A stretch of DNA of 64,000 nt, taken from positions 126,730,001 through 126,794,000 of the forward strand of contig NC_086097.1 in assembly GCF_963921235.1 (NCBI RefSeq), written 5' to 3'. Positions 8,820-33,011 of this stretch are shown here, one piece after another. The DNA is from Mobula hypostoma. Lineage: Eukaryota. Each line of letters starts with the position of its first letter. Positions within the stretch are counted from its first letter, which is position 1. Position numbers and translations under genes: made by a program. Below the pieces are notes generated by a model. It was given only the letters and a program-made list of their open reading frames with translations. It ran no database searches and was not told where the DNA came from.

Positions 8820-8935
8820 ATAATAGACCCGGAATTGACGTAGTGAAAGGGGGCGTATACAGACGGCGCACTTCCGGTCGGCGGGTCAGACGGGACGGCC
8901 TGTGGGTCACGTGACGTTAGCGGCGCCATGGCGGC
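8820..8935 (+). promoter_or_regulatory. CpG-rich, TATA-less SNRNP48 promoter / 5' UTR
   Basis: Sharp CpG enrichment; ETS-type CCGGAA (8829) and CACTTCCGG (8869-8877); CRE-like TGACGT (8836); palindromic E-box GTCACGTGAC (8906-8915); strong Kozak GCCATGG. TSS not determinable from sequence. Confidence 0.65.
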
Positions 8936-9104
8936 CGTGGAGCTGGACGAAGAGGAAGCCAACATCGAGTACTCGAAACGGTTGCAGAGCCGTTTGGAGC
9001 GAGTGAGCGAGCTGGCGCGGTTCACCCAGCACTGTGCCCGGGCCATGGAGGGCGTACTGAGCGCGCTGGGCTGGAGCAGCGAGGGCATGGATCGGCAGCG
9101 GCCG
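8928..9104 (+). CDS. SNRNP48: U11/U12 snRNP 48 kDa protein, exon 1
   Basis: MAAVELDEEE..LSALGWS resembles the SNRNP48 N-terminus (TASLGWD); 177 nt; phase-0 donor CCG|GTGAGA. Confidence 0.88.
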
Positions 9105-10244
9105 GTGAGAGGCTGGTTCAGATTCAGTGGCACGGCCCCTCCACTGAGCAGTTGGGGACCCGGGCACAGAGGCTTGCTGCTGTTGGATGGGTCACGCCTT
9201 ATCCTTGCAACTGATCTCAAAACACACAGAATCCTGAAGGAATTTAGCAGGTCATTGTTCTTTCCCTTCACTAATGCTGCCTGACCTGCTGAGTTCCTCC
9301 AGCATTTTGTGCATTGCTGAAGTCTTCTAGCATCTGTAGAATCTGTCTGTGTTTGTCTTCTATACTCCTAAACGTTTCCTATGTATTTATCCAAATGTCA
9401 ATACTGTCCCTCATTCAGATACTCCTATGCCACCTGGTTTTTTGGTTCCCTTTCCCTAAGAATTAGATTGTGTGCATTCCTTCTATCTATGCCCCTCATT
9501 ATTTTAACACCTCTAATAGGGGGTTATCTGTTAGTCTCTTAACATTCCAAGAAATGAAGTCCTTGCCTACCCATCCTTTCAGACAATTGATTCTTGGCCA
9601 CATTCTCATAAATTTTCTTTTCACTCTTTCCAACTCAGTGATACATAAACCACCTGGTACTCCAGCCTTAAAAGATGTACTATACCTCACTCATGTCTTC
9701 CCCAACTGTAATGTCACTTTCCAACCCCTGGACTCAGTACCCTGATTAAGATCAGTATGTCAAATGTTGCCTTCTTCACCTTGTCTAGCCATGACGCAGC
9801 TCTCGGTGAATTTATGTACTTGTACTCCTAAGTCTCTATTCCACATACTCCCTATGATCTTGCTATTCGCTGTATTCCCTATCATCGTTTAACTTCCCAA
9901 AAATGCAACACCTCTCACTTAACAGAATCAAAATCTACTTCCTAATCCTCAGCCTACTTGCCTAGCTTATCAAGATTTCCTGTAAATTTTGATAACTTTC
10001 TTCCCAGTCTATGATACCTCAAATTCCCTTTATTATGGAATGAGGGAATGTTTTGTAATATGGTGAAAGGTTTCAGAATTTTTGAGGATTTAACTTAAAT
10101 CCAAAGATGCAAGCAATTGTTGGGTTACGTTTATATGGTGATCTTTATATGAATTTGCCTACTATTTATGTTGTCTACTATTTTCATTGGTATTATTTTG
10201 TTAAAAATCCTGTAAGTAACTTTGGATCCCATCAACTTTTCCAG

Positions 10245-10361
10245 CCTGATCCAATGGTTATTTGTCCATTTGATGCAAATCACCGTCTTCCAAAATCTTC
10301 ACTGGAAAAACATGTTACATCTTGCAGGCTAAGAAAACTGGGATATTCTAAAGAGGAAGAG
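10245..10361 (+). CDS. SNRNP48: SNRNP48 exon 2 (CHHC zinc finger)
   Basis: TTCCAG| PDPMVICPFDANHRLPKSSLEKHVTSCRLRKLGYSKEEE |GTTTGT; this is the U11-48K CHHC motif. Confidence 0.97.
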
Positions 10362-11803
10362 GTTTGTAGTTTGTTACAGTTTTGTTAATTATATGTTTAA
10401 TATATGTTTTTTTTCTAATCAAATTTATTTTTGAAAGGGGTTTTGACTTTTTTGCATTCAGAAATATTGAAAGTACTTGGTATTTTTAGCTAACGGCTAT
10501 ATTGGTAGGATTTTTTCTTCTGTTGAAGCCGTACTTGATAAGGCCAAAACTACATGTTGTAGCAGTTAGGATTTCATCAAAGCCATATATAATTGCAATT
10601 TTATCATTTTTTTAATCCTCAAATCCTTTTTAAAAAGATGAAAATGTGGCATTAATTTATTTAGTTAACACTTGTTATTCCTGCTTGTTAAACTTCTATT
10701 TACTGAAGTGTTTTGTTCACCCTGAATAAAAATATTTTGTTGTTTCTCCTAATTTTAATAGCAGATTATTTACAAAGGTGGATAATCACATCTTTTTCCC
10801 ACATACTGTATTTTTCACAGACCTCTCTGGTCATTTTTATTTTATAGTTTCTCTACATACTCCTTGCAGGGCTACTTTCCCAGCTAGTCAGTATAAGATT
10901 ATAAGACATAGGAGCAGAATTAGGCCATTCCATCATGGCTGATTTATTGTCCCTCTCAATCCCATTCTCCTGCTTTCTCCCTGTAACCTTTGACACTCGG
11001 ACTAATCAAGAACCTATCAACCTCTGCTTTAAATATACTCAATGACTTGGCCTCCACAGCAATGAATTACACAGATTCACTACCCTATGATGAAAGAAGT
11101 TCCTACTCATCTCCATACTTAATAGTCGTCCCTCTATTCAGAGGATGTGCCCTCTAATCCTAGACTCGCCCACTATAGGAAACATCCTCACCACTCTATC
11201 TAGGCCTTTCAATATTCGATAGGTTTCAATGAGATCTCTCCCCACCCCCCCACTCATTCTCTAAGCTCCAGCAAGTACAGACCCAGAGCCATCAGCCACT
11301 CTTATGTTAACCCTTTCATTCCTGGAATCATTCTCGTGAATCTTCTCTGGACCTTCTCTAATGAATTTTCTGCAAATATGATAAAGTTGCAATCTGTCCT
11401 CTCATCTATTGTAAATAGTAAATTGTATTAGAAGTATTAGAATTGGTTTATTATTGTCACATGTACCGAAATATAGTGAAAAGCTTTTGATTGTGTGCCA
11501 TCATTGAGGTAGTAAAAAGAAAAATGGAATGCAGAATAAAGTGCTATAGTTTCAAAGAAAGTGGAGTAGAGTTAAAGACATAAAGTGCAAGATCACAACA
11601 AGGTGGACTGGGAAATCCTAAGTTAATCTTTTGGCATGTGAGAGTCCTTTAAGAGTCTGATAGGTTGAAGAGAACAATGTCAGACTTGACCTTTATAATC
11701 TTAGCTGCTCATTTTAATATCTCCCATAATAAGTCCCAGCAATTTCTGTATTACTGATGGACTTGCTTTTCAAAGACGAAAAGAGAAAAGGTCTGTTTTG
11801 TTG

Positions 11804-12375
11804 TAATGTTGAATTTGTATAAGGCATTGGTAAGGCCAAATCTGGAGTATTGTATACAGTTCTGGTCACCGAATTATAGGAAGGATGTCAATAAAATTGA
11901 AAGAGTACAGAGGAGGTTTACTAAAATGTTGCCTGGGTTTCATCTCCTAAGTTACAGAGAAAGGTTGAACAAGTTAGGTCTTTATTCTTTGGAGCGTAGA
12001 AGGTTGAGGGTAGACTTGATAGAGGTGTTTAAAACTATGAGGGGGATTGACAGAGTTGACGTGGTTAGACTTTTTCCATTGAGAGTGGGGAAGACTCAAA
12101 CAAGAGGGCATGGGTTGAGAATTAGAGGACAAAAGTTTAGGGGTAACATGAGGGGTAACTTCTTTACTCAGAGAGTGGTAGCTGTGTGGAACGAGCTTCC
12201 AGCAGAAGTGGTTGAGGCAGGTTCTATGTTGTCGTTTAAAGTTAAATTGGATAGATATATGGACAGGAAAGGAATGGAGGGTTATGGGCTGAGTGCAGGT
12301 CGGTGGGAATAGGATAGGGTAAGAGTTCGGCACGGACTAGAAGGGCCGAGATGGCCTGTTTCCATGCTGTAATTG
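11804..12375 (+). mobile_element. CR1 LINE 3' fragment (intron 2)
   Basis: ORF 11806..12312 LYKALVRPNLEYCIQFWSP..FFTQRVV..WN. Confidence 0.9.
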
Positions 12376-14350
12376 TTAAATTGTTTTATATAGTTTTATC
12401 ATCCATGGGGATTTTCCTAAAATCTAAGGAACACAGGAAGATGAAACCTGTGGTACAGGTAATGTCAGGTGTGCATTCCAAACTTCTTGGGTTATTTTCA
12501 CCAGTAACGTTTTATTACTTTTTTTCCCTTCTTCCTCCTTATTTTGCCATGTGGCTAAAATGCAAACTTTGTGAAAATGGCCCACTTGTCCTGTGCACAG
12601 TTCCTGCCTGTACTAATCTGCTCTGATGTGGAGCATCAGCCAGGCTGGTTCTCTGTACCTCAGATGAGCCCTGTGACTTGGAGAGGTTGCATTTCTGGGA
12701 GTAGACCTTAGGTGTCAGATGCTGCCAACAAAGACCCTTGGAGCTATGGCTGGAGAAATTTTTCTTTGGTGCATTGGAAGATGAGTGGATATCAGGTTCT
12801 AAAATTATGAGAGGCAAGCTGTTGGTTTTGTGAACAGGCTGCCAGAAGTGGTCATGCATCCAGCCGCCTTAAGAGGCTTTTAGATAGGCAAGTAAACATG
12901 TAGGGAATAGAGGATATGGATCGTGTGCAGGCAGAAGAGATTTGGTTTGATTTGGTATTGTGTTCATTGCAAGTTTGAAGGCTAAAGGTCCTGTCCTAGT
13001 GCTTTAATGTTCCACGCAAAAAGTTACATAATTAATAAGAAGTTTGATTGCACACATCTTTAAAGTGATAGAATGTATTTAAAAACAAAACAAATCAGTT
13101 AGATCACGACTTTATCGTAGTGCTGGTCATCTTCTAATCAATAAGGCCTCAGTTGCTTTGCAGACCAGTTGTAGGCTGAAGCCAAGGGGTTGGATATGAA
13201 TGTATCTGTCATCCATGTCCTGATGGTTCAGCTGCTGGACTTAACAGCATGTTCAGTTAGCATCTGATTTGTAACTTCCCTCAGATTTGACTGCTTATGC
13301 AGATATGTGACATGAGGTGAGCCAAGAACCTCAGATATATTGTTTTGTGGAACTACCAGCTGAAAGTAGACTCATTTTGGACCATACAGCAAGGCATCCA
13401 ACTGCTTTGCATGCCTCGGGATCAGAAGTAGAATCAAATTTATTTTCACTGTCTTATATGCTGTGAAATCTGTTGATTTGTGGCACCAGTACAGTGCAAA
13501 GTTGTAAAAATTAGTATTAATGGTAAATAGTATCTAAGACGTCTTCAAGGAGTGGTGCCTCAAAAAGGCAGCGTCCATCTTTGAAGACCCCCACCACACA
13601 GAACATGCCCTCTTCTCACTGTTACCATCAAGTGGGAGGTACAGAAGCCTGAAGGTACATACTCGGCGATTCAGGAACAGCTTCTTCCCCACCTGCCATC
13701 CAATTACTAAATGGACATTGAATCCATGAACACTACATCACAATTCTTAAAATTTCTGTTTTTGTCTTATTTAATATATATAGCCAGGTGGCTACACATC
13801 GAGGAAATGGAAGTCATCCAAAGAACGAGGGATAGATCTATCTGGAAAACCATGGTCACCACATCTGCTTCGGATATGGTACCTAGACAGACAGACACAT
13901 ATACTTAATGAAATTCGCAGTTCTTTCCTATATTTATCATGCATTGAATTATCCTGCTGCCACTAAGTTAACAAATTTCAAGACACGTGCTGGTGATAAT
14001 AAATCTGATTCTGATTCTCAAATAGAATGTTTCGATGTACATGTGACAAATAAAGCTCATCTTTAAATTTTTAATGGTAATGTTTGAAAAATAATAAGTA
14101 CTGTTCATGGACTGCTCAGAAATCTGGTGGTGGAAAAGAAGCTCTTTCTGTAAGGTGACCAGAAAATCCATGACATTGCTTGTTGCTGTGTTTTAGATTT
14201 GTGATACTATTTTAAGTGAGGAGTCACTGACTGATAATACTAAACTTCTCATGTTAACTGTGTGTCCAAGCCTTTCATTCTTACTTTCTTGTCTTAAATA
14301 CAAAGTTAAGCACTTTTTTTTAATGTTTCCTTTAATCTCATAACATTTAG

Positions 14351-14411
14351 GCAGAAATGTGTGACCCGTCATTTGCCTATGAGAACACTCTGGTACCTAC
14401 GTTTAAAATGG
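14351..14411 (+). CDS. SNRNP48: SNRNP48 exon 3
   Basis: TTTAG| AEMCDPSFAYENTLVPTFKM+G |GTAAGT; matches the DEMYNPEFFYEN region of the human protein; phase 0 to 1. Confidence 0.93.
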
Positions 14412-14639
14412 GTAAGTATAATGTCAGTGTTAAAGGAGAGTAACTTTATTGGCACAGCCATAATTTCTAAATTTAATAAGCATGTTGACAGTGTTAATGA
14501 GAATATGTTTATTGGCTTTGAGTTTAAAGATATGGATAGGTATAACTTAAGGTGATGAGTGTCAGTCTTAATCCTTCTCTGAGACCATTTCTAATGCATC
14601 CATCTGACACTTTTCTATTATGCTAGTAATCTAAAGGTT

Positions 14640-16630
14640 ATTCTCAACCACAAAAAGAGATGGGGAGGAATTGAAACATGTGCGGAGGAAAAGATCAAGG
14701 GGCTAAAGAGGAATACAGGAGAGAGCTGGAGAACAAGCTTGGCCAGAGTAGCACATGGGAGGTGTGGAGAGGCAGGAAGAACGTCACTGGCTTCAACCAG
14801 ACTAGCTGTAGAGCCTCAGAATGCAGCCGTGAATGGGCTAATGAGTTAAACCAATTCTTCAGTAGGTTTGACAATTGCCCTCCTGTTCACACCCCTCTCA
14901 GTACACCAATCCAGATGCCGAGGCACCCAGTGCTCCCTCAGCACCAACCCCTCCCCTCCTCCTCCCCCCTCCAGTTCAATACGTGGATGAGTAACACAGC
15001 TATCACTGTCTACATCCCCTCCTTACTCTGCACCTACCACCACACCTCCACATACCAATTGCTATCGTCCCATTCTTCACCTCCCCCTAGTCCCCTCCTT
15101 CTACCAACTCCCCAGTCACCATGGACTCCCCTTCACTGCTGAGCAGGTGAGAAGGATCTGGGAAACTCAGACACGGCAAAGCATTGGGACTGAGTGGTGT
15201 GAACCCCAAGGTCCTGAAGGAGAGTGCTGAGCAGTTGTGTGGAGTTCTCCAGCACATTTTCAATTGGAGTCTCAGCCTGGAAAGTGTCCTGACTCTGTTG
15301 AAGACATCATGTCCCAGTATCCAAAAAGGGCCAACCTAAAGTCTTGAATTACTACCGTATAGTGGCCCTGACCTCACACATCATGAAGACCCTAGAGAGG
15401 CTGGTCCTGGCTCACCTCCAACCCCTGGTTAGATCAGCCCTCGATCCCCCTGCATTTTGCCTACCAGCAGCACATTGGAGTTGATGATGCTGTCACCTAC
15501 CTGCTGAACAGGGTCTACTCCCATTTGGATAAGCAGGACAGCACTGAGAGGATCATGTTGTTTGATTTCTCAAGGGCCTTCAGTACCGTACAGTCCTCAT
15601 TGCTGGGTAAAGCTTTGTTCAATGCAGATTGGCACTTCCATTGTATCTTGGATAATGGACTACCTGACTGGCAGACCACAGTTTGTGTAGCTTCAGAGCT
15701 GTGTGTCAGACATGGCTATAAGCAGCACTGAGGCCCTAAAGGCTCCCTTCCTGTTTACCTGGGACTTCAGATTCAACACTGCTTCATGTCACCTGCAAAA
15801 GTTCTCTGATGACTCAATAGTAGTTGGGTGTATAAATGAAGAACAGGAGGATGAATACAGGGCCCTGGTGGAGGACTTTGCCAAATGGTGCAAGCTGAAT
15901 CATCTGCAGCTCAGCATCGGTAAGACAAAGGAGATGGTGATGGACCTTAGGAAGACTAAGCCTGCACTGCTTCCTGTTACTACAGATGGTGAGAGTGTGG
16001 ATGTGGTGAGGACCTGCAAGTACCTGGGGGTGCCCCGGATGACAGACTTGAGTGGAGCGCAAACACAGGGGCTGTGTACAAGAAGGGCCAAAGTCGCCTC
16101 TACTTCCTGAGGAGACTGAGGTCCTTTGGAGTATGCAGGCCTCTCCTTTACATGCTCTACTGGTCTGTTGTCACCAGGACAATCTTCTATGTGGTGGTGT
16201 AATGGGGAAATGGCATCAACATGGGTGATGCCAACAGGCTCAATAAACTGATTAGAAAGGCTGGCTCTGTTATAGGAGTCAAACTGGACACACTGGAGGC
16301 TGTGGTAGAACAAATGACCCTATGGAAAATGCTGAAATTCTGGACAATGTTTCTCACCCTCTGCATGCCACCTTGGCTGAACAGAGGAGCACTCTTAGTA
16401 ATAGATTAAGACAACTGTGCTGCTCCAAAGAGTGCTATATGAGATCGTTCTTACCCTCGGTCATTAGGCTCTTCTAATGAGTCAACTATAGCCAAAGAAG
16501 TGATGACCTCCTCCTTTTAGACTGTTTGAGGTAACTTGTTTATTATTCATTCTTTCTTCTAATATTTGTATATCTGTGTACTTGTAATGCTGCTATGACA
16601 CAGTAATTTCCTTTGGGGTTAATAAAATAT
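14640..16630 (+). mobile_element. Degenerate Rex/Babar-type LINE (intron 3)
   Basis: Fragments ANELNQFFSRFD, RIMLFDFSRAFSTVQ, QKFSDDSIVVG, KTKEMVMD, KYLGV; 3' AATAAA tail. Confidence 0.8.
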
Positions 16631-18488
16631 ATATTGACTTATCTATTAGAACTATATCTTTAAATTATCAGTAAACTCTTGAATTTATTGGATCAGTGTC
16701 AGGGGAAGTACTCTTTGAAGTTTGGAAAGTTGCATTTAGATAGGATGATGTGTCATTTTGAAAAGTGAGGTTGACTTTTTGCTGTCAGTAAGAGTCATCC
16801 TTTTGAATGACGGAATATGTCAAACAATCACACCCAACTTTCATTTTGGATTTCCTTAATGTCGTTGAGTGGCATGGTATGGAAAATAGTCCCTTTAGCC
16901 AAACCGGTCCACGCCTACTAAGATGCCCGCCCAAGCTAGTCGCTTCGGCAGCGTTTGGTGCATAACCCTCTAAATATTTCCTCTGCACGTTGCTAAGTTA
17001 CAATTAATTGGAGAGATGCAAGAAGCAGAAGTGCAAGTACAGATTCTATGAAATTACATACCTTGTAAAAGCTGACATTGTCTACCATTTCAAGTGCTCT
17101 GGATTTTCTTCCTTGCCTAGGCACATATAGGTAACTGAAGTGATTATGTATTTCCGATATTTATTATAAATATCAAAGGAGACTTCATTTAAGACAAAAG
17201 ACTTCAAGTTCATTTTGCATTTCATATACCTGCTTAAACAATTTACAAAGTGCGAAGCCATTACACTTCAGCATACAAAAGTGGGGATGGTGGTCAGTCC
17301 TCATTTCTTTGCACACAACAGCAAAGATATGATAATTGATGGAGGAGTATTTCACAAAATTTGCAGTATAATAGGATATTATTAAGTTCCGGAGATAATT
17401 TCGTGTCTGTCAGTACCTCAGTGAATTAGATAACGCTTTGTCTGATTACCCAGTGGAATTTGCATCCATCTGGCAAGAAATCTGATTGTCTGCCTGCCTT
17501 TATGATTCCTTCATTAGTGCAAATTCCAGTACAGTAGCTCTACTAGTCCATGCCTTGTCACGTTCTCATAAAAAACTCATGAAAATTCAGCACCATTTTT
17601 ATTTTTTCGAAGTTCTTCACAGCAAAATGAATCTGCATGAAAAGCCACTTCACAGGGTTACAATATAAACAAAGGACCACAGCATGACAAATGTAACTGT
17701 GTTATACACCAGCTGATTGTTTTGCTATTTCTGTTAAGATTCAACAACTTCTGCAACTTCAGTAGTTCTGTGTGAAGTAATATTTGACAGCTAAACCATA
17801 CATAACTGAACTACTGTTATCAATTATTAAGAGAATTTGACTCTTGCAAGTGGTGATTTGCATTTGGCAATCTGATGGGCCAGTGATACAGTGCTTGTAA
17901 TGCGTGTAATAGGTTTTCTTGGAATGCTAGTTTATCCTGCTTCCATTGGGGGAAAATCCACTTGTGCTTCTTTTAAGTTTTAGTATTTGACCTCAAGAAT
18001 ATGAATAATTTTGGAAGTTGTCATATTGTTTCATAGAATTAGATCACACAGTATGGAGGTTTGAGCTTTAACTGTTGCTTGCATGGAGCATACCTTTATG
18101 CCTTTTTGTTTTGGCTTGAGAAAGATGATCCAACTGCTTTTCACATACAGTATGGGAATAAATTTCTTGTTTAATATGCTCTTAAACTCTTAATTTCAGT
18201 TGAAAATAATGTTCAAATATAATTTAAAATAGATGGCCTAAAGCTGCACTCCTACTTCCATTCAGAAGTCTAAAAATCTGTCATTATTTTCCTTAAAATA
18301 TCTTATCAACAGTTTTTAGTCTGTTCTTATGGACTTGTAAAGCTACCATTGGGAATCTACACCAATTCACAGACCACTGTTGAGGAACACTGTTCCAGAG
18401 TATCCCTTTATGATTATCTGATTTGTTCATTTCTTGTGTTTATGTTACATGTTGTACAAAAAGGCCTTTATTATCTTGTTCTATTTAG

Positions 18489-18569
18489 ACAAAGATTTGC
18501 AAACTCGGATTATACATGAAGCAAGAAGTAAAGCTCCACTTGGAAAAGAAGAGAGAGCATATTCACAAA
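18489..18569 (+). CDS. SNRNP48: SNRNP48 exon 4
   Basis: TTTAG| (D)KDLQTRIIHEARSKAPLGKEERAYSQ |GTATGT; similar to human NKDSQFQIIKQAR; phase 1 to 1. Confidence 0.92.
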
Positions 18570-19865
18570 GTATGTGAAAAACTTTATTTTCTGCTATTTT
18601 TCACCCAACATATGATTACAATGTAAAGTTGATGTTGTCTACTGGCACTCCTACTGATAGTGCCTCTTCAAAATAATCACCTTGAAATAGTTATTTTTGT
18701 CTGTAATTTATAAACTGGAGCTTCAGTTATTTCAGTGATTATATAGTTTACTTTCAGTCACTAAATTGAATCGTGTCTGTGATATTGCACACAATGAATG
18801 AAATACCAATATGGACATTAGGAATAAAAGTACACCAGGCCCATTAACGACGAGTCTGCCCACTAGATGTAAACTGTTACGTGACTGTCGTCTGTCAGTT
18901 GAGGGAGATGAATATTGTGTATAATCAAATTTGGGAAATTTTTCTGGAATACAGGTGACTATTTCATACAGTTCGTTATTGGATTTGTGGTATACTTTTC
19001 TCCATTTTCCTCCGGGTATTAGGAATATCTAAGAGGCTTTTGATGTTGGGTCATTTGAAGCTCAAGATTAATAGATTTCTTTTGGGTTGGGGTACTTAAG
19101 AAGCAACTTTTCCAGCTGTACAGCAGAATAGGCTTGAAAGGTTAAATGATAGGCTGGTGGATCTTTAATCTCACGTGCAGAACTAGCGCCAATCTGAAAT
19201 CACCATCCCCATCTGTTACAGTGACTGCATTGGACACAGATTTCTGGCACAATTTCTGCATCCTTTCAGTAGCTTTGTCTGGAACTGAGAAATATATGAT
19301 TTTATTTGAACAATAATATCTTGAATGTCAAATATATTTTCTCAAGTATTACTGTTGTATTAAATTGAATATTATTCTAATATTCATTTTTACTATATTC
19401 CCTTGAGGGTTTAAAATGAATTGATACTTTATTGGTGACACTTAGAGGTTCAATTTTTTTCCTGATTTGAAGATCCTCGGTTTACTTGATATAATTTATC
19501 GATCACATTTAAATAACCAAAGAAGCAAATTGTAGGATTTAAAGTTGTTCACATGTAATTGCATTTTAATACTGTAACCTGTTAATGATGAACCCTTGAT
19601 AATTAATTAATCTTTGTTTTAATTTATCCTGGCTGATATTGAAGATTGCCCTTAGTATGATCTTAATTGAAATTATTAGTCTGCTAAAATTAAAATAAAG
19701 GTAACACGTGTATGCAAGGGTAAAAGACTGTTGAACTAGAATATTTTGTAATACATTTTGTTTCTTTAAAATGCCTAATGCCTTTGAACACCATGACTCA
19801 GTTTTCTTCATGAGGTGGTACAGAATGCTGTATACGGAATTTTTGCTTTCATCAGTCAGCACTAA

Positions 19866-21127
19866 CACTGGGCAGCAGCTTTTTTGAAAGTGTTGCTTCC
19901 TCAGTGGTTACAATAGACTGCTTAAAGCTGAACACAAATATAATTTCAGACTACTTGTATCATGTAGGAATTTGGAGAAACAAGAAATTAACTTTTATTG
20001 AATATAATGCATTTAACTGCGTAACAGTGCTGATGTTTTGCAGTATTCAACTAACCTAAAAAATGTTGATGATTTTCATTTGTACTCAGTGTCTGAGGCT
20101 TCTTACTTAAGTGTCCAACAATAATCAACCAGCATTGATGGTTTCCAGTTGCCCTGATGCTGTTTTTCCATGACATAAGGTCCTGGTGAAACCTTTCAGT
20201 GTGCTCGTCACTGACAGCACCAAGGTTTACAGGGAAGAACTCTAAATGGAAGTGCAGAAAATGAATCTTTAGTGACATGTTACATTTCATGGTTTTGTAT
20301 GCTTGAAGCATGTTGTCAATCAGCCGCATGTAGTTTGGTGCTCTGCAGTTGCCAAGAAAAATTTCAACTACATCCTTGGATACTTCCCCTGCGATTTTCT
20401 ACACACAGACACACTCTCTGTCTCTGTCTCTGAGACAACAAAAATGCCTGCCTTAATTTTAGCATCAGTTATTCTGGGAAACATCTGTCTTAAATATTGA
20501 AATCCTTCTTTCTTGTTCATCGCTTTCACAAAATTTTTCATAAGCCCCATTTTTGTATGATGAGGAGGCAAAAATATATTTGGTTCTACAAGTATCTTAT
20601 GTGCCACCCTTTTTACCCTGGAACCACCTTTACGGAGTGGCCAATCCTGTCCCATTTGCAAATGAAACAACAGTACTTGCTGTATCAGAGCTTCATGCCC
20701 AGTAGCAACACTGCTACTTTCAGATCACCACAAACGTTCCAGTTGTAGCTGCTGTACTATATCTATTTCAACAAGACTTCCAAATTCTGGTGGCTTTCTT
20801 TCATGTGTACTGCATTGCTGATTGGTATTGAAGGGTGGACACTGCAGCTGTGTAGCAGCTTAGCTTTCAGGCTTGACTGTGAAGAATCAATAAAAGACAC
20901 CATTGTTGTGGTCATGCTGGCAGCCCAAAGCATGACCAGGCATGCCTGGACAAGGTAGAAAACTTTTCAGCTTATATTGTGGGCAACATTTTAATTGACT
21001 TGAATTATGAATTGAAATAACAAATAGAGGCAATTCCAAAAAATTGTGCACGATGGGGAACTTTCATGGTGATTTTCATGATCAGCATCTAAAAGTATTC
21101 AGGAAGCAAAATCTTTGTTGTCCAGTG
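19866..21127 (-). mobile_element. Internally deleted CMC/Chapaev3-like DNA transposon (intron 4)
   Basis: Transposase remnants LPP.H.K.GLMKNFVKAM and MSLKIHFLH.HL.FFP.NLGAVSDEH.ERFHQD; termini CACTG..CAGTG with imperfect TIRs; 3-bp TAA TSD (19863-19865, 21128-21130). Confidence 0.8.
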
Positions 21128-21383
21128 TAAATATTTAGTGTATAGGACTGATATAATTAACAGAACAAAGATCACTTTTTCTCATTGACACTCACAGTTA
21201 AGAAAGGAGGCTCGAGATAACTGGAAATCATTGTTCTTGTAAACCTGGAACTGTTGCTGAGCCATGGTGAGGAATAAGAGTTCCTCATTTGTTCCATCAA
21301 ATGGTTTGCTTTATTGAAGGACTATAAATTTAAGTGCTTACTCAATATATTTCTTTTTAAAAAATGGGTGATATTGTTTAGGA

Positions 21384-21460
21384 CAGGGGTTCCCAACTTG
21401 GGGTCCACAAATCACTCAATGGTATTGGTCCATGGCATAAAAAAGGGTTGGGAACCTCTG
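21384..21460. mobile_element. hAT-Charlie-like mini MITE
   Basis: TIR CAGGGGTTCCCAAC; 8-bp TSD GTTTAGGA/GTTTAGAA. Confidence 0.8.
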
Positions 21461-21582
21461 GTTTAGAATAAAAATATGTAATTATTCATTTTGTTTTACC
21501 ATGTGGTATAAAGCTCCACTCCCACAATGTTCTCAATTGCAACATTTTCTCCTGAAAGTGTCTTACTTGCAGATGTAACCAG

Positions 21583-22003
21583 CAATGCTCCCTCTAAGGT
21601 GTGTATGTGTGCATGCACACATTTCTTTTGCTACTAACACACAAAGGAGTTGCACAAAGAATTTATATGGTGATGGACTTTAGGATCCAGGGGAGCCAGG
21701 GAGTTCAGGAACCACCGCCCACGGCTGCTGCTGAGTCCTGAGTCAGGAGTAAGTCGGTGTAAATATATATTTGCAGAGAGTGAAATAAACATGATTTGAG
21801 AATTATCGATCCATTAATTTTAATGTGTTAACGGCATTGCCAACTGAGCAGAAATACTGCAATTCAGCAGTAGCCGCGGGCGGCAGTTTCTGAGCACCCC
21901 CAGGTCCTGAAGTCTGTCCTCATGAGGCAAATTGTTTGTGCAATTCCTTTATGCTCTGTTAACAAAAGATGCGTGTGTGGCAAACACCTTGGAGGGAACA
22001 TTG
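21583..22003. mobile_element. hAT-like MITE with long imperfect TIRs
   Basis: CAATGCTCCCTCTAAG.. / ..CTTGGAGGGAACATTG; perfect 8-bp TSD GTAACCAG (21575-21582, 22004-22011). Confidence 0.85.
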
Positions 22004-22113
22004 GTAACCAGTTATTAACTATCTTAAAACAGCTATACATATGATATGGCATACAAGTCACTCCCTGAAATAAAGCCATGCTAGATGTTTATGTATTGGA
22101 TCTCAGTCTAGGT

Positions 22114-22192
22114 CAGGGGTTCCCAATCTGGGGTCCAAGGACACCTCAGTTAATGGTAGGAGTCCATAGGATAAAAAGGTTGGGAACCCTTG
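22114..22192. mobile_element. hAT-Charlie-like mini MITE (second copy)
   Basis: Same TIR as the 21384 copy; TSD GTCTAGGT/GTTTAGGT. Confidence 0.8.
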
Positions 22193-22488
22193 GTTTAGGT
22201 GAATAAATCAGCAATTTAAATATAGAAAATATATACATCTGTGCAAAAATACAATTGGCTTGGTACCCTTTCATTTAATGATCGCAGCTTTTGGCCATGG
22301 GTGTAATTTAACTTGTTTTATATCAGCTATTAACTTTTAGTTCCTGTAACCAATTATAAACTTTAGGTGATGCATAATAGTTACACTGTTACAGTGACAG
22401 CCAACTAAATTGTAATTATGCACGTTTCATTAAATATTTAACTCATTTTGAATATGATAATTTAAACTTTTTGGTTTTTCTCTTTCAG

Positions 22489-22496
22489 TAACAGGG
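22489..22496 (+). other. SNRNP48: 8-nt poison micro-exon in SNRNP48 intron 4
   Basis: Strong pyrimidine tract TTTTTCTCTTTCAG|TAACAGGG|GTGAGT; inclusion shifts exon 5 into a frame with TAA at 24746-24748. Confidence 0.85.
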
Positions 22497-22584
22497 GTGA
22501 GTATATTTGACAGAGGAATGATGAACATGAAAGAATGTTCTCCTCATGTACAGATTTGCACAGAATTTTACTTGATGTCATACA

Positions 22585-22612
22585 GTATCCTTTTAATATT
22601 ATTATATCCTTT
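22585..22612 (+). promoter_or_regulatory. USSE (U11 snRNP-binding splicing enhancer): tandem U12-type 5' splice-site motifs
   Basis: GTATCCTTT (22585-22593) and ATATCCTTT (22604-22612), both perfect matches to RTATCCTTT, in intron 4 of SNRNP48 where the element is known in other vertebrates. Confidence 0.93.
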
Positions 22613-24685
22613 AAAAATGAACCATAAGCGGACTGGTTAAATAAAATTTCAGATTTTCTTAAGAGTTATTGATCTTTGCTTAATGTTTTCTGAGTGGACC
22701 TTTTTAAACCCAATTTCTTTGCATTAAAATACTTCATCCTAGCAGGCCTGTACTTTGGTGGTTTGCTGTATCTGATTTCATTATCTGGGGGAATAAAAGT
22801 TGAGATTAATTACTTAATTTTCAGTGAGTTTTTTTGCTGCACAAAGCTACTGCTAAAAAATTAAAATAACTTTAAAAAGGATATCTTTAAAAGTTAGAGA
22901 AAAATGAAATTCTTATTGTGATGGAGGAGCTTAGAAAAGTACAGAGATTTAAAAACCAGGTCATTTTGGAATCAGGGGCCAGTATAGGCCAGTAAATGAT
23001 GGATGGTCAGGATATGAGCTATGAAGTATTGGGTGAATTTTCCTTTTTGAAAAAAGGAGATGCAGGTGGGGGAGAAATGGGGTACGAAATGAACAGTGAG
23101 TAATTGGATCTAGATGAGAGTTTCAGTAGCCAATGAGCTGAAAAAGGTAATAAGAAGCTGGAAGAATAATTCCTACTGGAGAAGTTAGGGGTTCAAGCTC
23201 TCCTCTAGTGTACATAGAATGCCCTAGTTGGAAACAATTTTTGTTTTATTCTGATTAAAACATCCAGAGAGATGTTTTAATAAATAAGCAATAATGAAGG
23301 TAAGTATGTCTTGCATACATTAGTGGTACATGTTTCATTGCCAGTAGTTAACAGATTGTAAATGCTTTTTAAGTAAGTAGTTAAATGTTGAGTATTTAAT
23401 CTCAATGATGCAATTCTTAAGGTGGAATATTTAACATTGTTGACTGATCTGCCATCCCAAGTGTATACCAAACCTAGTTTTAAGTTTTAGGATCAATAAT
23501 TGGATTTGCTTTTCTGTGTGACTTTTATCTCTATCTTCAGTGCTTTTTGCAGACCTTTTGTGATTTGTAATTTAATATGACATTGAATCATATTGCTCAC
23601 TTTTTAACCAGATTTTTTAAGCTTCATTTAACAGATTTGGTTTGACTTCAGTTCTTTTTTGTTCTACGAAACCTTTTGAACTTAAATCTTCAGCAATAAG
23701 ATTTTTTTATTGTGAGCTGTTTAAATTTAATTGTTTTAAATTCATTATGTAAAATGAATTGTAAAAATCTAGATTTTTTTTCAGAATGTGTACTTGCTGC
23801 ATTTCTTTATAACCACTTGTTACCTAGGCTTTCTTATGCATAGTCATGGCTACCTCTTCACTTGTCCTTTGGCTAAATTGGAAGTTGACTTAATTTTTAC
23901 CAGGTTGTAATTAATCCAGTAAAATGCTAACGTCGATGATTCTTGTATAGATGTCACAATGACTCCCAGACTTCTGAAGCAATTTGATGCATGGAACCAC
24001 CACCTCAGTACTAAATTGTCTTGAAATGATTCTCATCTGTGATACCACTGTATAAATAATGCAGAAGTTTCACTCTTGGCTGGAAAATCTAATGGCTTTG
24101 TAAAGCTGTCAAGTTTTCCTTTATTTGATTTCTGGTAAGAGCTGACCAATGCAGGCAGACCTCAGGTCAGATGTGTATCAGTTACCATCCTCAGTTTGGT
24201 CCTTGTAATTGGAAGTGTACTGACAGGAGGTTGCAGACTTCTTGCCCGCAATTTCTGAAGATGTACTCCAGGCCCCCATTAATTCTTGATGGAGTGATCT
24301 AAACTTTGAATGAATTGGGAGAAGACGTTCCAGTTGAAAATAGCATCCTAATTGAGGACCTCAAGTTGGTGGCTCTGTTCAAGAGATGACAACTTCATTG
24401 TTTTTAGGCAACTTTGTTGTTTTGTTGTTTCTAATATCCAGATAATTGTGTTGATAACACTACAAGAGTTGTGAGTTTTTTAAGATGTAGTCTTTGGAAA
24501 GATACTTATAGATAACTAGATATCTTCAGAGATATAATTCAGTAATTGCAAAAAAAAATATGAGAATTGGGGGTTTTAGCAGTACACAGTAGTCTATTTT
24601 CCAATAATCGAAGTTATATACTTGCAAATTTTTTGGAAATTATGTGAAGTTTAGGAGTAATTAAATAAATTGTTAATATGCATAG

Positions 24686-24874
24686 GTGATTATTCTTCAG
24701 TACCTCTTGAAGTTCCTGAGAATCATCAACATTCCATCTGTGACCTAACTCCTGCGGATCGCCTGGCTATTTATGAGCATGTCATCAAAGAAACCAGTCA
24801 GCAAAAAAACAAATCGAGGTCCTTTGAAAATGACAGTGATTTGTACGTGGACCTTGCTGCAAAGCTCAGCCAAG
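24686..24874 (+). CDS. SNRNP48: SNRNP48 exon 5
   Basis: (S)DYSSVPLEVPENH..CDLTPADRLAIYEHV..ENDSDLYVDLAAKLSQ |GTATGT; phase 1 to 1. Confidence 0.96.
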
Positions 24875-26059
24875 GTATGTACTTAATTTGTTATTGAACA
24901 GCTACTTAGTTTAAACCAGCTAAGCAGATGTTTCATTCAATGTTGTAAGTAAAAACAACACAAGGTCATTAGTTTCAAATGTAGGGTGAAGCTATGGAGT
25001 TTTAATCATCATTTGTACCAACTGTATTATTTAACTTTGTTACAAGTTTGATAAGGAGCTGCTTAACCATGTTTGATGATCTTCAACACACGCAAAATGC
25101 TGGAGGAACTCAGTGGGCCAGGTAACATCTATGGAAATTGAGTTTTGATGAGGGGTCTCGGCCCAAAACATTGACTGTACTCTCTTCCATAGATGCAGCC
25201 CGGCCGACTGAGTTTCTCCAGTATTTCGTGTGTGTTGCTTGGATATCCAGCATCCGCAGATTCTTCTCTTGTTTGTTGATGATCTTCAAATTAGTTGTTG
25301 CCGAAAGGTACAAAAGGATATTACCAGAATGTGGGGAAGACTAGTGCTTGCATTGCACTTTCACCTATTAGGATATTTACTTTCAATCTGAGATTAATCT
25401 TGGGGGAATTTCTAAATAGAAGGAAGTCCACATTCAGAAACTATGAAACTACTAGATATGAGACAAAAGATAATATACAAGGGTAATGAGATGTTACTCT
25501 TTAACAGCAGGAAGCTAAAGTACAATAGACATTATATGTATAAAATGTAGTGGTGGGCTCCATATAAAGCTTTGCATTTGATCCAGACTGCCTCTTTTCA
25601 AGAAGTTTATAAGTGTATGTGCAAGTTCATCAGAATACCATTTTCTAAAGATTTTCAGATAGGCTGTGTAAAATAATTTTCACTACAGGCTGGAATATTT
25701 AATAAATTGAGGTATTCAGGAAGGGGAACACATAGAAAGAGATCCTCTGTTGCAGATGTGAAGTGGGAGAAGGGGGTATTTCCTTTGTATTTTATAAAAT
25801 TAGAAATTTAAATTGATATCAAATTATACCACCAGTAGTCAATGGCCCAAATTCTTCTTGGGAGCTAGGAATGTTTTTGTTAAGTATACTAATTCTATTA
25901 AACTTAAATCATAATTAGAATACTTTGATAAAATTATAACTTAATGCCTTTCTATGGAAGATAGGATAAATGAAATAATCCAGTGTTCAAAACAAATCCA
26001 CTATTTTTTAAGGTATTTGATGTTGATGCATTTTCTTATTTTAAGTTGTCATGGTGTGT

Positions 26060-29010
26060 AAGGAAAGCTGTGGTTCAGGGAGTAATTCAAGAGGGGGGAG
26101 AGAAAAGAAATCTGATTGGGGCTAGTATAGTCAAGGGAATAGATACAGTTCTCTGTCACAGGGTTCGAGAGTCCTGAAGGCTGTGTTATCTGGCTGGTGC
26201 TTGGGTCCAGGACATCTCATCTGAGGAATCTGGAGTAGGAGGAGAAAGATCCAATTCTAATGGTCCATGTGAATACCGACAATGTAGAAAGAACAAGGAA
26301 AGAGGTTCTGCTGAGGGAATATAAGCAGCTAAGGACTAAATTAAAGAACAGAAAGAGGAATTTCTTTAGCCAGAATGGTGTATCAGAGAACCTGTTGCCA
26401 AGTCTTTATGTATATCTAAGGCAGAGGTTAATAGATTCTTGTTTGGTCAGGGCATGAAGGGATATGGGGAGAAGATAGGACACTGGGGCCGAGAGGAAAA
26501 ATTGATCAGTTGTGATGAAATGGTGGAGCAGACTTGATGGGCCATATGGTCTAATTCTGCTCCTTTATCTAATGGTCTTTTGGAATAAAGGCATAGACTT
26601 TTCTAAATGGTGAGAATATTCAAAAATCAGAGGTGCAATGGGACTTGGGAGTCCTTGTGCAAGATTCCCTCAAGGTTAACTTGCAGGTTGGGTCAGTGGT
26701 AAGAAGGCAAGTGTTACGTGAGCACTCATTTTGAGAGGACAAGAATATATGAGCAAGAATGTAATGTTGAGGCTTTATAAAGCATTGGTCAGACCTTGCT
26801 TAGAGTATGGTGAGCGGTTTTGAGTTCCTTATCTAAAAAAAGATCTGTTGGTATTGGAGAGGTTCCAGAGGAGGTTCACGAGAATGATTCCAGGAATAAA
26901 AGGTATGAGAATGTTTAATGGCTCTGGGTCTGCACTCGCTGGATTTTAGCAGGATACAGGGTGGAGGTGGATTTCATTAAAACCTATAGAATATTGAAAG
27001 ACCGAGTGGATGTGGAGAGGATGTTTCCTGCAGTGGGGTTTCCAGGACCTGAGGACACAGCCTCAGAACAGATGGAGCAGAGATGAGGAGGAATTTAGTT
27101 TTCAGAGCCTAATGAATCTGGAATTCATTTCCACAGACGACTGTGGAGGCCAAGACCTTGAACATAGTTAAAGCAGAAGTTGATAGGTTCTTGATTAGTC
27201 AGGATGTCAAAGATTACAGGGAGAAGGCAGGAGAATAGGGTTGAGAGGGATAATAAATCAGCCATTACGAAACGGCAGGGCAGACCCATTGGGCTGAATG
27301 GCCTAATTATGCTCCTGTGTCTCATGGACTACTTTGCATCACTCTTCACAGTGGAAGACACCAGCAGCATGCCATAAATTCAGGAGTCAGGAGGCAGATG
27401 AGTCCAGTTGCTTTTACTAAGGAGAAGGAGTTTTGGAAGCTGAAAGGTCTGAAGGTAGTTAAGTCACCCTGACCAGATGGACTATACCTCAGGGTTCTGA
27501 AAGAGGTAGCTGAAGAGATTATGGAGACATTAGTCATCTTTCAAGACTCACTAGATGTTGGAATGATTCCAGAGGCCTGGAAAATTGTAAATGTTATTCC
27601 ACTCCTTATGAAGGGAGAGATGTAAAAGGTGAGAAATTATAGGAGTTCGCTGGTTGGCAAGATGTTACAGCCCATTTTTAAGGATGAGATTTCGATGTAC
27701 TTGGAGGCACATGATAAAATAGGCTGAAGTTGGTATTGTTTCCTAAAAGGGAAGTCTCACCTGACAAATCTTTTGGAATTCTTTGAGGAACTAACAGGAG
27801 AATAAGCAAAGGGCTGTCAGTGGATGTTGTTTACTGGGATTTTCAGAAATTCTTTGACAAGATGCAGTACATGAGGCTGTTAAACAAGGTAAGAACCTAA
27901 GGAGTTACAGGAAGAGTTGCTAGCAAAAGATTGCTGAATGGCAGGAGCAAAGAGTGAACAAAGAAGGCCTTTTCTGGTTGGCTGCTGTTGGCTGGTGGCT
28001 AGTGGTGTTCCGCAGGGGTCGGTGTTGGGACCATTTTTTTCACAGCATATGTCACTTATTTGGATGGCAGAATTGATGGCTTTATGGCCCAGTTTGCGAA
28101 CGATACAAAAATAAGGTGGAGGGGCAGGTAGTGCTGTGGAAGCTGGGAATGTGCAGAAGGACTTAGACAGATTTGGAGAATGGGCAATAAGTAGCAGATG
28201 GAGAGTAGTGTAGGGAAGTGTATGATCATGCACTTTGGTAGGAAAAATAAAGGCATAGAATAGCCTCTTTTCTAAGTGGGGAGTGAATGCAGCAATTGGG
28301 ACTTGGGAGTTCTAGTGCTGGATTCCCTAAAGGTTAACTTGCAGGTTGAGCAAGCAGTAAGGAAGGCAAATGCAATGTTAGCATTCATTTCAAGAGGACT
28401 AGAATATTAAAGCAAAGGTATAATGCTGAGGCTTTATAAGGCATTGATAAGACTGCATTTGGAATATGGTGAGCAGCTTATCACCCCTTATCTGCGAAAC
28501 GATGTGCTGGCTTTGGAGAGGGTCCAAAGGAGGTTCACGAGCATTATCCTGGGAATAAAAGAGTAGTGTAGGGAACTTATGAAGAGCGCTTGATATCTCT
28601 GGGCCTGTACTCACTGGAGTTGAGAAGAATGAGGGAGGACCTCAATGAAACTTGTTGATTGTTGAAAGGCCTAGATAGAGTGGATGTGGAAAGGATGTTT
28701 CCAATATGAGAGTATAGGACCAGAGTGCACAGTCTCAGAATACAAGGATGTCCCTTTAAAACAGAGATGAGGAATTTCTTTAGGCAAGTATAATGTTTTT
28801 TGTGTTTTTATTTAATTGGGTTCTCTTTATCTAGTTTTAGGACTTGTGTGAAGATCTGATCACATTTTAGGTCATATTTATGCAGAAATAGGGAAAATTC
28901 TAAAGGATTCACAAACTTTCTAGCACCACTGTATTAGCCAAGATTGAATGGCTGGGCAGACTTGATGGGCCAAAAATGGCCTAATTCTGCTACTATGCCT
29001 TGTGGTCTTA
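26060..29010 (+). mobile_element. Mosaic of degenerate CR1 LINE pieces with a Tc1-like terminal fragment (~28787-28931) (intron 5)
   Basis: Repeated CR1 RT and 3' motifs; Tc1-like end ..TTCACAAACTTTCTAGCACCACTG followed by TA. Confidence 0.75.
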
Positions 29011-29141
29011 AAACCGGAATAACTTCATTGGTATGACAGTAGTGTGTGCTATTTGCTGTCAGAAATGTTATTGCACATATCATCTATACTTAGTCATAGC
29101 ACATTTTGTACGTTAAAATAAATCTCTTTGCTCCTATGTAG

Positions 29142-29263
29142 AGGAGGAACAGAAAGGACCGAAGTCGCACCTTGAAATACTTGCTGAAATGAGAGATTAC
29201 AAGCGTCGTCGCCAATCCTACAGAGCCAAGAATGTTCATATAACAAAAAAGTCATACACAGAG
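29142..29263 (+). CDS. SNRNP48: SNRNP48 exon 6
   Basis: (E)EEQKGPKSHLEILAEMRDYKRRRQSYRAKNVHITKKSYTE |GTAAGA; this is the near-invariant SNRNP48 motif; phase 1 to 0. Confidence 0.98.
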
Positions 29264-29729
29264 GTAAGAACGAGTGAGCCAGTCTATTGTATTAATAATT
29301 AGTCAATGGTACAGCACTCATCATTGGTTTTCTGTTCTTTACTTTGTACTTTAAGTGAATCTCATTAAGTATTTAAAATACAAATCGAGAGCAAAAAATG
29401 TCTAGTAGAATTATAATAATGAATCGCAATGAACTTGGCTTGCTCTTTGAACTTGTATCAGCCTAATCTTGACTGGATGCAGAGTATTGAATGAATGATC
29501 CTTCTGCATCTGTGAGACCTTGCACGGCCTCAATGGCAGCAAAGCAGTGGGCAGTGTACTGCTGAAGCCCCTCCCTAAAACACCTGGAATGCATTTTAAC
29601 AGAAAGCTAGGCTGTAGATGCAATCAGAAGTCATTTTTCAAAGTAGGCTTCTAGTATATTAAGATCTTATCATTTTGTCATTGTGCTGCATTTCACATTA
29701 AATCCTATATATTGAATCTTAACTTGCAG

Positions 29730-29857
29730 ATAATTAAGGATGTTATTAATGTGCACATGGAAGAATTGTCAAGACAGTGGAAAGACCAAAGTGATTCTGA
29801 TAATGTGGAAGAAGGCCAAAGTTCTTTATCTTTAAAAAGCTCTGCAAATGCACATAG
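29730..29857 (+). CDS. SNRNP48: SNRNP48 exon 7
   Basis: TTGCAG| IIKDVINVHMEELSRQW.. |GTATGT; phase 0 to 2. Confidence 0.96.
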
Positions 29858-31119
29858 GTATGTAGACAACATTTATGCTCATTTTAGTTTGAAATGAGTG
29901 GCAAAAATCCAGATGGATTCAATGAACTGATCTTTCAGTGAGGTTGTATACCTCTTTGTTTTTCCAAATAACCCACAATTAACATCTGTAGGCTAAATAT
30001 AGAATAGAGAAATGTTGAGAATCAGTATATTATCACTGATAAATGTGAAGTTTGTTGTTTTGTGGCAGTAGTACAGTACAATACCTAGTTACTGTAAATT
30101 ATAATAAGAATATGTTTAAAAAAAAACAAAACATTGAAGTATTGTTCACGGGTTCATGGACCAATGAGAAATCTGAAGGCAGAGGAAAAGCAACTGTTCA
30201 TAAAATGTTGAGTGTGCATCTTCAGGTTTCTGTACTACCTCCTCAGTAGTAGTAATGAGAACAGGGCACGTCCTCGATGGTGAGGGTCCTTCATGATGAA
30301 TACTGCCTTTCTGAGATGCCTTCAGTGGTGGAGAGGCTAGTATCCTTGTGGTTGAGTCTTAACCCTCAACAGCTTTTTCTGATTTCGACAGTGATGCAAC
30401 CAGTCAGAGCGCTCTCCATGGCACATCTGTAGAAATTTTAAATGTTTTTTTTTGCATATGTCTAATTGGATAGTTGGGGCAGTGATAATCTTTTCTTTGC
30501 AAAATATTCATTGTGGCCCTCCACTCTTTTATCAAGAACAAGGACATTAAATTTTGATATTTTGTTTCAAAAAAAATAACCCACCCAACCCCTTTGATAA
30601 ATGTATATATGTTTATCCAACGTTTAATCTACAAAATTAGTAACCTGTTACATATGATGGGATCATTGATCTTAAAATGAGCTTTTTCTTTCACTAACGT
30701 GCAAGCATAATTCCAAAAATATTATTGTATCCTGAACTTAAAGAAATAAGTCAGTTTATTAGTGATTGAATATGTAAAATCAGAGCATCTCAGGCAGATT
30801 TGTAAATATTGAATATGGCATTTCTTAAAGCAAGCTTCTAAGCTTAACCAGGGTAGTGTGAGGGAGAGAAAAGGCCTATCTGCTGCATTTACTCCTAGTG
30901 TGAATAGTTCACTGGGTTGTTTAAATATTGCACTTGTCAGAAAATTGTGGGGTTGATCACATCACACTGTTAGGACTGAAAGAGGCCCAGGAGTCCTTAA
31001 GGAACTGGTAGAAAATGAATATAGTTTTGCAGACTTGTGTGACTGGGAACATTGTTCAATTTTACAAGAAATGAATATACTCCTCTCATTTCTTGTACTG
31101 TGTACCCTTGTTTGTAATT

Positions 31120-31970
31120 TATATAAGCAATTTGGATATGTAAGTTAGTTGGATATTTGGTTAGTAAGCTTGTAGATGATGTGGATTGTGTAAAATTACA
31201 GGATCATGATCAGCTGTGCATGCAGACTGAGGATTGGAAATGGCTTTCAAACCAGAATGAAATGAGGTAGCGTAGGACTTGTACAGTGAAAGGTATGGCC
31301 CAGAAGTGTGTTAGGAATCAGAGGGACTTAACAATTCACATGCATGATTTGCTAAAAGTGGTGTCATGAAAGATATGAGGGTGACTAAGACATTTGGCTG
31401 GCTTTTGTCAAAGCACTGAGTATCGGAGTTGGAAAGTTGTGTGACCAGCTATTGGTGAGGCTGCACTTGGAACATTGTGAACAAATTTGGTCACCCTGTT
31501 ATAGGAAAAAATGTTATTAATCCAGAGAGAATGCAGAAAAGATTTGCCTGGATGCTGCTTGGACTTGGGGCTCTTGCGTACAAATTATAGGTTGCATAAA
31601 CTATGACTTTATTCCCTGGAACATCGGAGTATAAAATGTATAAAATCGAGGCGCATAGGGTGAATATATAGAGTCTCTTTCCCATGTAGGGGGTGTAAAA
31701 ACAAGAGAACGTAAGTTTAAGGTCAAGAGATTTAAAACAGACATCAGGAAGTTTTTTGTGCAAAGGGTGGGGCGTATCTGGAATGAGTAGCCATAGTTAA
31801 AGGTCAAAGGTGAGCACGTTATCAACATTTAAAAACCATCCATATCAGTACAAGAATAGGCAAGGTTTTGGCGGGGTTGCGGATGAAATGAGGGCAGATG
31901 GGAGTAGCTGGATGGACAACTTCAACATGGATCAGTGTGCTGAAGGATCTTTTTCCATGCTCTTGACTGT
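31120..31970 (+). mobile_element. Old CR1 3' fragment (intron 7)
   Basis: Degenerate CR1 3' motifs (GGTGAGGCTGCACTTGGA, GTTTAAGGT..AGATTTAA). Confidence 0.65.
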
Positions 31971-32039
31971 TCCAAGTTCAAGTTTAATTGTCATTCAACC
32001 ATACATGAATACAGCCAAACAAAACAGTTTTATTTTGTG

Positions 32040-32229
32040 CAACACACATCAAAGTTGCTGGTGAACGCAGCAGGCCAAGCAGCATCTATAGGAAGAGGCG
32101 CAGTCGACGTTTCGGCCTGAAACGTCGACTGCGCCTCTTCCTATAGATGCTGCTTGGCCTGCTGCGTTCACCAGCAACTTTGATGTGTGTTGCTTGAATT
32201 TCCAGCATCTGCAGAATTCCTGTTGTTTG
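32040..32229. mobile_element. Palindromic Penelope-terminal-repeat-derived insertion (75-bp perfect hairpin)
   Basis: Arms 32039-32113 and 32119-32193 are exact reverse complements; 14-bp TSD AGTTTTATTTTGTG (32026-32039, 32230-32243). Confidence 0.9.
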
Positions 32230-32711
32230 AGTTTTATTTTGTGACCTAGGTGTAAAACACAGTATCAACAGACACATGGCACAAGGCACAGAGAGCACAT
32301 GTAAGATACCAGTAAAATACAGTCACACAAAAAAATATAGTCCAGGATCCTGAGTTCACGAACATTGCTGAAATCCTGCAGTCAACCTCAGTACAGCTTG
32401 TCTTCTGCTGAGTGAACACTGGGGGGCAGCACCGACTGCAGATTGGATGTCGCACCATATCATCTCCAGTGGAGTGCACTGACTCTGCCTCTCTCCTGGG
32501 CAGCTCTCACCTGTGGCGCTGAGGACTAGGCCTTAGGTGACACTGTGGCTTGAAGCCTTGTCCTTGCTATGACCGAGGCCGTGCAGTTCCCTTGCCGTCT
32601 GCCAATTATTCAGTGAATTGGACTATTGTAACGCTATTGAAAATATTCAGGATTATTGTGCAGCAAAGGCATTATTTTTTGAATCTGGGTATATATTTCT
32701 TTCTGTTGTAG

Positions 32712-32879
32712 AAAAAGATCCATTGACAAAATATCTCCTTCATCTGAATGTCAAACTATTGGAAGTGGTAGAACTGTAGATCGTGACAACTGGAAAAGGA
32801 ATCGCAGTCGAAGTCCACGGGAGAGGAAAAGAAGTCCAGAATGGAGTAAGGAGAGAGATTCAAGGAGAAGGCAAGAGAA
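32712..32879 (+). CDS. SNRNP48: SNRNP48 exon 8 (RS/RE-rich)
   Basis: TTGTAG| ..KRNRSRSPRERKRSPEWSKERDSRRRQE |GTGAGT; phase 2 to 2. Confidence 0.92.
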
Positions 32880-32956
32880 GTGAGTGCATCATATACTGTA
32901 AAGTCATGTATTTTTGTGTCATTGATACAGATATAACATTTTATGTGCAATTTCAG

Positions 32957-33011
32957 AGACCATCACTCACGGGACGACAACCGCCATCGAAGTTACAGAC
33001 GGCGAAAGTGA
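32957..33011 (+). CDS. SNRNP48: SNRNP48 exon 9, coding part
   Basis: TTTCAG| (K)DHHSRDDNRHRSYRRRK-TGA after a 77-nt intron; similar to the human C-terminus (RHHSHKRRK). Confidence 0.9.

Follow-up and report, generated by a model that had tools for sequence, protein, structure and literature searches.

The question raised by this locus is whether a pair of U12-type 5′ splice-site motifs in an intron of a ray gene forms the USSE feedback switch, in which such tandem sites activate an upstream U2-type acceptor (as defined in excerpts of PMC5473595, PMC3584512, and PMC8329584). An initial annotation, made from the letters of the window (the whole 64,000-nucleotide stretch of Mobula hypostoma DNA analyzed here), had placed the motifs in intron 4 of SNRNP48 (U11-48K) and had proposed a cartilaginous-fish origin. 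Both assignments were confirmed by a nine-exon gene model, the translation of which is identical to a Mobula ray protein (P0002) at 365 of 365 residues. In window coordinates, the parts of the model are as follows:

8928..33011, + strand: SNRNP48 coding span, with nine exons and all eight introns GT..AG
8928-9104, 10245-10361, 14351-14411, 18489-18569, and 24686-24874, + strand: exons 1-5
29142-29263, 29730-29857, 32712-32879, and 32957-33011, + strand: exons 6-9
18489..18569, + strand: exon 4, 81 nt, phase 1 end, whose donor serves the poison acceptor as well as exon 5
24686..24874, + strand: exon 5, 189 nt, containing the poison-frame premature TAA at 24746-24748

The CHHC zinc finger (zf-U11-48K) occupies residues 63-87 of this model, and the ray protein can be aligned over its full length with orthologues from chimaera to mouse. 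The peptide encoded by exon 5 matches the solved U11-48K structure (PDB 8r7n_F) with an E value of 1.2e-19; when longer sequences were searched with the same peptide, 13 proteins were recovered, 12 of them named U11/U12 48 kDa (rays, sharks, and chimaera). The USSE-like element lies in noncoding sequence of intron 4 (18570-24685), which at 6116 nt agrees with the 6 kb estimated earlier, and the element stretch is single-copy, having one match in the genome. Its parts are arranged as follows:

22438..22446, + strand: likely U2-type branch-point region (TTAAC-like), predicted from sequence, inside an AG-free stretch extending from 22401 to the acceptor
22471..22488, + strand: pyrimidine tract and CAG acceptor (CAG at 22486-22488), used in four of four runs
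22489..22496, + strand: 8-nt poison exon TAACAGGG, with contig joints in X5, X6, X7, and X8
22494..22502, + strand: GGGG run (22494-22497) overlapping the U2-type donor GTGAGT (22497-22502), read from the sequence
22585..22593, + strand: U12-type 5′ splice-site motif 1, GTATCCTTT, a perfect RTATCCTTT match
22604..22612, + strand: U12-type 5′ splice-site motif 2, ATATCCTTT, a perfect RTATCCTTT match

Motif 1 starts 96 nt from the first base of the 8-nt exon, and the two motif starts are 19 nt apart. The CAG acceptor, the 8-nt exon, the GGGG/GTGAGT overlap, the tandem motifs, and both spacings were therefore all found exactly where the initial annotation had put them. In mammals, the SNRNP48 mini-exon is 8 nt long, and a G-run occurs at the SNRNP48 mini-exon in fishes. 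The earlier claim that the layout fits the published USSE definition likewise holds for the excerpts cited above. Pyrimidine tracts of the nine acceptors scored range from 7 of 15 positions at exon 5, the worst, to 13 of 15 at the poison acceptor, the best; because a strong poison acceptor faces a weak exon 5 acceptor, it is proposed that the switch is easy to throw. A nested CAG/AG (AG at 22493-22494, within 22492-22496) would define a 2-nt frameshifting exon, for which no use was seen among the joints listed.

Use of the 8-nt exon was assessed from four runs (X5-X8) of the same organism and a single study, placed on 18300-25100; these consist of contigs rather than reads, and their RNA-type status is a guess, none being recorded as RNA. 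Contigs drop variants, and their depth does not correspond to isoform ratios, while the uncovered parts of the upstream intron, as well as the productive joint unlisted in X6-X8, were not counted as absence. Part of the stretch is also present in runs from three to four further organisms (shares of 0.11-0.61), which were not counted as evidence. In all four Mobula runs (X5, X6, X7, and X8), contigs join 18569 to 24685 with TAACAGG between them, the final G being placed on 24685. Since TAACAGG and an eighth base, G, sit between exon 4 and exon 5, the 8-nt exon is spliced in, and since its junction is seen in contigs, the GTGAGT donor at 22497 is in use. The two junctions that the initial annotation had suggested looking for, 18569>22489 and 22496>24686, are thus represented in four of four RNA-type runs, as contig joints.

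Joining exon 4, the 8 nt, and exon 5 shifts the frame and leads to a TAA at 24746-24748 (codon 169), with the next junction (the exon 5 end) 126 nt downstream and the last junction 544 nt downstream; translation thereby upheld the premature stop, and its distance of about 126 nt, that had been predicted from the sequence. A stop located more than 50-55 nt upstream of a junction leads to decay, and by this standard rule NMD of the 8-nt form is predicted. The poison junction is nonetheless readily seen in these steady-state samples, which efficient NMD does not obviously predict. Among the joints listed, the direct exon 4-exon 5 joint appears in X5 only (one of the four runs), and the way contigs end in X6, X7, and X8 is compatible with assembly graphs lacking a productive path.

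The 8-nt form of the poison product was anticipated by the initial annotation, but a second, intron-keeping form was overlooked:

22489..24874, + strand: inferred extended exon 5, with 2197 extra nt and its first stop, TAA, at 22638-22640

Successive contigs of X5 end at 22518 and start at 22489, respectively, while in X7 a 1354-letter contig aligns over 1336 letters from 22489, with 18 letters remaining upstream. The contig carrying the poison junction includes 18 letters of exon 4 in X5 and X7, compared to a shorter side of 30 letters in X6 and X8. Eight isoform mixtures were simulated as k=31 graphs, with the data supplying the 3′ end of the 1354-letter contig. The 18-letter overlap arose in all four mixtures that combined exon 4>22489 with a kept downstream intron and in none of the four others; the same simulation with the extended form also yielded the 22518/22489 break. 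The intron-keeping form exactly predicts the overlap and the break as well as the contigs of 1354 and 804 letters. From these contig breaks, in two of the four runs, we infer rather than observe a second form in which exon 4 is spliced to 22489 with the intron downstream left in, because its junction is absent among the joints listed. This form could instead be a half-spliced intermediate, with exon 4 joined to 22489 first and the remainder removed later, since contigs can neither separate an intermediate from a product nor give the library type. However, contigs cover most of 22489-24685 in four of four runs, and excerpts of PMC5473595 describe a stable, nucleus-retained 48K long isoform in mammalian cells, where the S8 Fig legend names an extended exon 5, E5E. 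The intermediate is accordingly considered possible but rather unlikely.

The U11 partner expected of such a switch is present in the genome, where a U11 snRNA search returned four matches, including one strong gene (123 bits). Among the corresponding U11 snRNA-like loci (L032-L035), L032 looks intact, and L033-L035 are each degenerate at the 5′ or the 3′ end. Pairing of the U11 5′ end, AAAAGGG, is possible over positions +4 to +10 of motif 1 (7 bp) and over +4 to +9 of motif 2 (6 bp). Both motifs are also perfect matches to the U12-type 5′ splice-site consensus, as they would be if the minor spliceosome used them as genuine donors for an alternative intron of U12 type; regulatory minor introns of this kind exist, according to excerpts of PMC3584512 and PMC7244321, in Srsf10 and in the Drosophila dUrp twintron. 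Like the switch proposed for the ray, the Srsf10 and dUrp introns, as those excerpts describe them, place an unproductive isoform under the control of minor-spliceosome level, but the U12-type site there is a real donor, whereas in the ray neither a partner branch point nor a junction was found. Specifically, a CCTTRAY U12 branch point was sought in 22585-24685, between the motifs and exon 5, and not found, so that neither motif can be paired into a U12-type intron on that basis. Contigs also run unbroken across both motifs in four of four runs, and no joint leaving 22584 or 22603 occurs among the joints listed, although unbroken contigs do not prove that a donor is unused, because contigs drop rare variants. 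Use of the motifs as donors is thus very improbable, and the data fit tandem binding sites that are not donors.

Tandem motifs of this type could also arise by chance beside an unrelated, noisy microexon. Single RTATCCTTT-type 9-mers are not enriched in the window, where 4 were seen against 1.63 expected and 7 of 100 shuffles reached 4. Across the 3.48-Gb genome, the strict tandem has 84 matches, compared to 58 for a reversed control; because these numbers are near chance, the tandem alone is not special. At its place inside SNRNP48, however, it is very unlikely: the strict tandem appeared in none of 3000 shuffles of the intron and in none of 20000 shuffles of the 200 nt downstream of the acceptor, and the genome rate translates to about 0.0003 strict tandems expected per 24-kb gene. 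Furthermore, of 30 tandem loci inspected (the first of the 84), this one alone combines, in its upstream 150 nt, a pyrimidine-rich acceptor with a short exon and GTRAG. SNRNP48 is, moreover, one of only two genes, along with RNPC3, in which a USSE is known according to excerpts of PMC8329584 and PMC6865273. A coincidental pair is therefore barely credible here, and the tandem is taken as part of the SNRNP48 element. Separately, a satellite at G000:C36:69780328-69822569, the unit of which contains a tandem ATATCCTTT pair, contributes 15 of the 84 genome-wide matches.

Taken with the gene in which it resides, the element is very probably the known USSE feedback switch, which puts an 8-nt frameshifting exon into SNRNP48 mRNA. 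Primary studies of the vertebrate SNRNP48/U11-48K USSE are reportedly those of Verbeeren 2010, Turunen 2013, and Niemela 2015. In the ray, the gene, the motifs, the use of the 22489 acceptor and the 22497 donor, and the premature stop come from the data described above, and the rest of the mechanism is drawn from other species. By analogy, U11 (or U11/U12) carrying the 48K protein would pair with both motifs, with no splicing there, and bound U11, acting through exon definition, would recruit U2-type factors to the upstream acceptor. NMD would remove the resulting 8-nt transcripts and the extended ones would stay in the nucleus, such that more 48K-containing U11 would result in less productive 48K mRNA. 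Binding of hnRNP H to the G-run, and of U1 to the donor that overlaps it, might tune the choice; both factors are described at the G-run/U1 site of the SNRNP48 mini-exon in an excerpt of PMC13140579.

The ray element is an expected copy of a published mechanism. In fact, its retention is to be expected because reviews (PMC3584512, PMC8329584, and PMC6865273, in excerpt) describe the USSE mechanism as conserved across plants and animals, most strongly so in vertebrates. As far as the excerpts of these sources describe it, the vertebrate SNRNP48 USSE resembles that of the ray in its gene, its position upstream of exon 5, its tandem U12-type 5′ sites, its used upstream U2-type acceptor, its poison mini-exon with a premature stop, and its extended exon 5. 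The ray differs in being a cartilaginous fish and in having a 96-nt spacer with a predicted hairpin, a spacer that is possibly longer than in the species studied. The present results extend transcript-level support for a U11 feedback switch, with both unproductive forms, to a cartilaginous fish and are compatible with a full layout that has been kept since jawed vertebrates last shared an ancestor. A literature search linking SNRNP48, shark, and minor spliceosome returned nothing, which does not show that the ray element is unpublished.

The other known case, RNPC3 (U11/U12-65K), has a USSE in which tandem U12-type sites also activate an upstream U2-type acceptor; in excerpts of PMC5473595, the USSE-blocking morpholino spans two GTATCCTTT motifs that are 15 nt apart, compared to 19 nt for the ray pair. 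Unlike the ray SNRNP48 element, that of RNPC3 is described in the same excerpts as residing in a 3′ UTR intron and giving a long, nucleus-retained 3′ UTR with no frameshift. The looser tandem pattern has 300 matches in the ray genome against 269 for its control, and the RNPC3 element was not identified among the 100 matches listed. The ray RNPC3 USSE was not located in 400 kb at an amylase C-terminal match on C18, presumably a different enzyme, and no convincing tandem or exon for RNPC3 was found in 800 kb next to a COL11A1-like gene (C50).

The spacer of the ray element may be unusually long. Reviews report, in excerpt, that the acceptor-to-USSE distance is under selection (PMC3584512, PMC8329584, and PMC6865273). 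In the ray, a hairpin was predicted within this distance:

22505..22555, + strand: predicted hairpin in the spacer, with pair probabilities of 0.6-1.0, not significant compared to shuffles

The spacer hairpin has a z score of -1.66, with 15 of 200 shuffles equally stable; when intron windows were scored in another round of shuffling, 8 of 88 had a lower z score. Niemela 2015 is said to give an acceptor-to-USSE spacing of 25-50 nt, so that the 96-nt ray spacer may be longer than in the species studied; if formed, the modeled hairpin would cut the acceptor-to-motif path to about 47 nt. This raises the question of whether exon definition involving U11 and the major spliceosome can operate across a 96-nt spacer, be it folded into a hairpin or not.

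The same features bear on whether the 8-nt exon, although real, is independent of U11, with an acceptor that is strong by itself and motifs that, at 96 nt, are a relic or weakly acting. Such an arrangement would be consistent with the contrast between the gene's best pyrimidine tract at the poison acceptor and its worst at exon 5, with a spacing that may exceed the range reported as optimal, and with a poison junction found in four of four runs compared to one of four for the productive junction, among the joints listed. It is harder to reconcile with two perfect 9-mers, since motifs that had become a neutral relic would probably not have stayed intact, and the predicted hairpin, though not significant, could bring the motifs within the shorter path. 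U11 independence is thus regarded as unlikely, and the U11-driven switch remains the preferred reading. A more speculative extension of that reading, put forward here as a doubtful proposal, is that the switch in the ray is thrown much further than in mammals: the poison mRNA would be a major form at steady state and would partly escape decay, a 168-residue protein would be possible, and the hairpin would bridge the 96 nt. This is hinted at because the poison joint occurs in four of four runs and the productive joint in one of four (among the joints listed), and because of the contig ends in X6-X8. If true, the 168-residue product would keep the zinc finger that binds the 5′ splice site (residues 63-87) and lose the rest of the protein, and the hairpin over the 96-nt spacer would let U11 still reach the acceptor.

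The surroundings of the element are less repetitive than first described. The initial annotation had depicted it as an island in a "transposon-filled" intron, which was an overstatement: measured against a background of 1.36 Mb from the same genome, repeats account for at least 912 of 6116 bases (at least 15%, a lower bound), all at 19865-22187, upstream of the element, with none past 22187. A transposon-filled intron 4 is ruled out on these numbers. Within this repeat-containing part, an interspersed repeat in two pieces occupies about 19860-21145, and a short interspersed element is present as two direct copies (21376-21472 and 22106-22207) that are 77% alike over about 100 nt and on which many unrelated contigs pile up. 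A-to-G differences at 21633, 21951, 21961, and 21962, each in single low-depth contigs of X5 or X7, could be alleles, errors, or RNA editing. An Rfam search of the window gave no match. Elsewhere in the window, RVT_1 retroelement fragments are located at 5949-6650 (- strand) and 52355-53083 (+ strand), and two long stop-free frames at 54378-55760 and 55768-56928 (+ strand), of 460 and 386 amino acids and with no Pfam match, lie in a GC-skewed stretch and are possibly repeat-derived.
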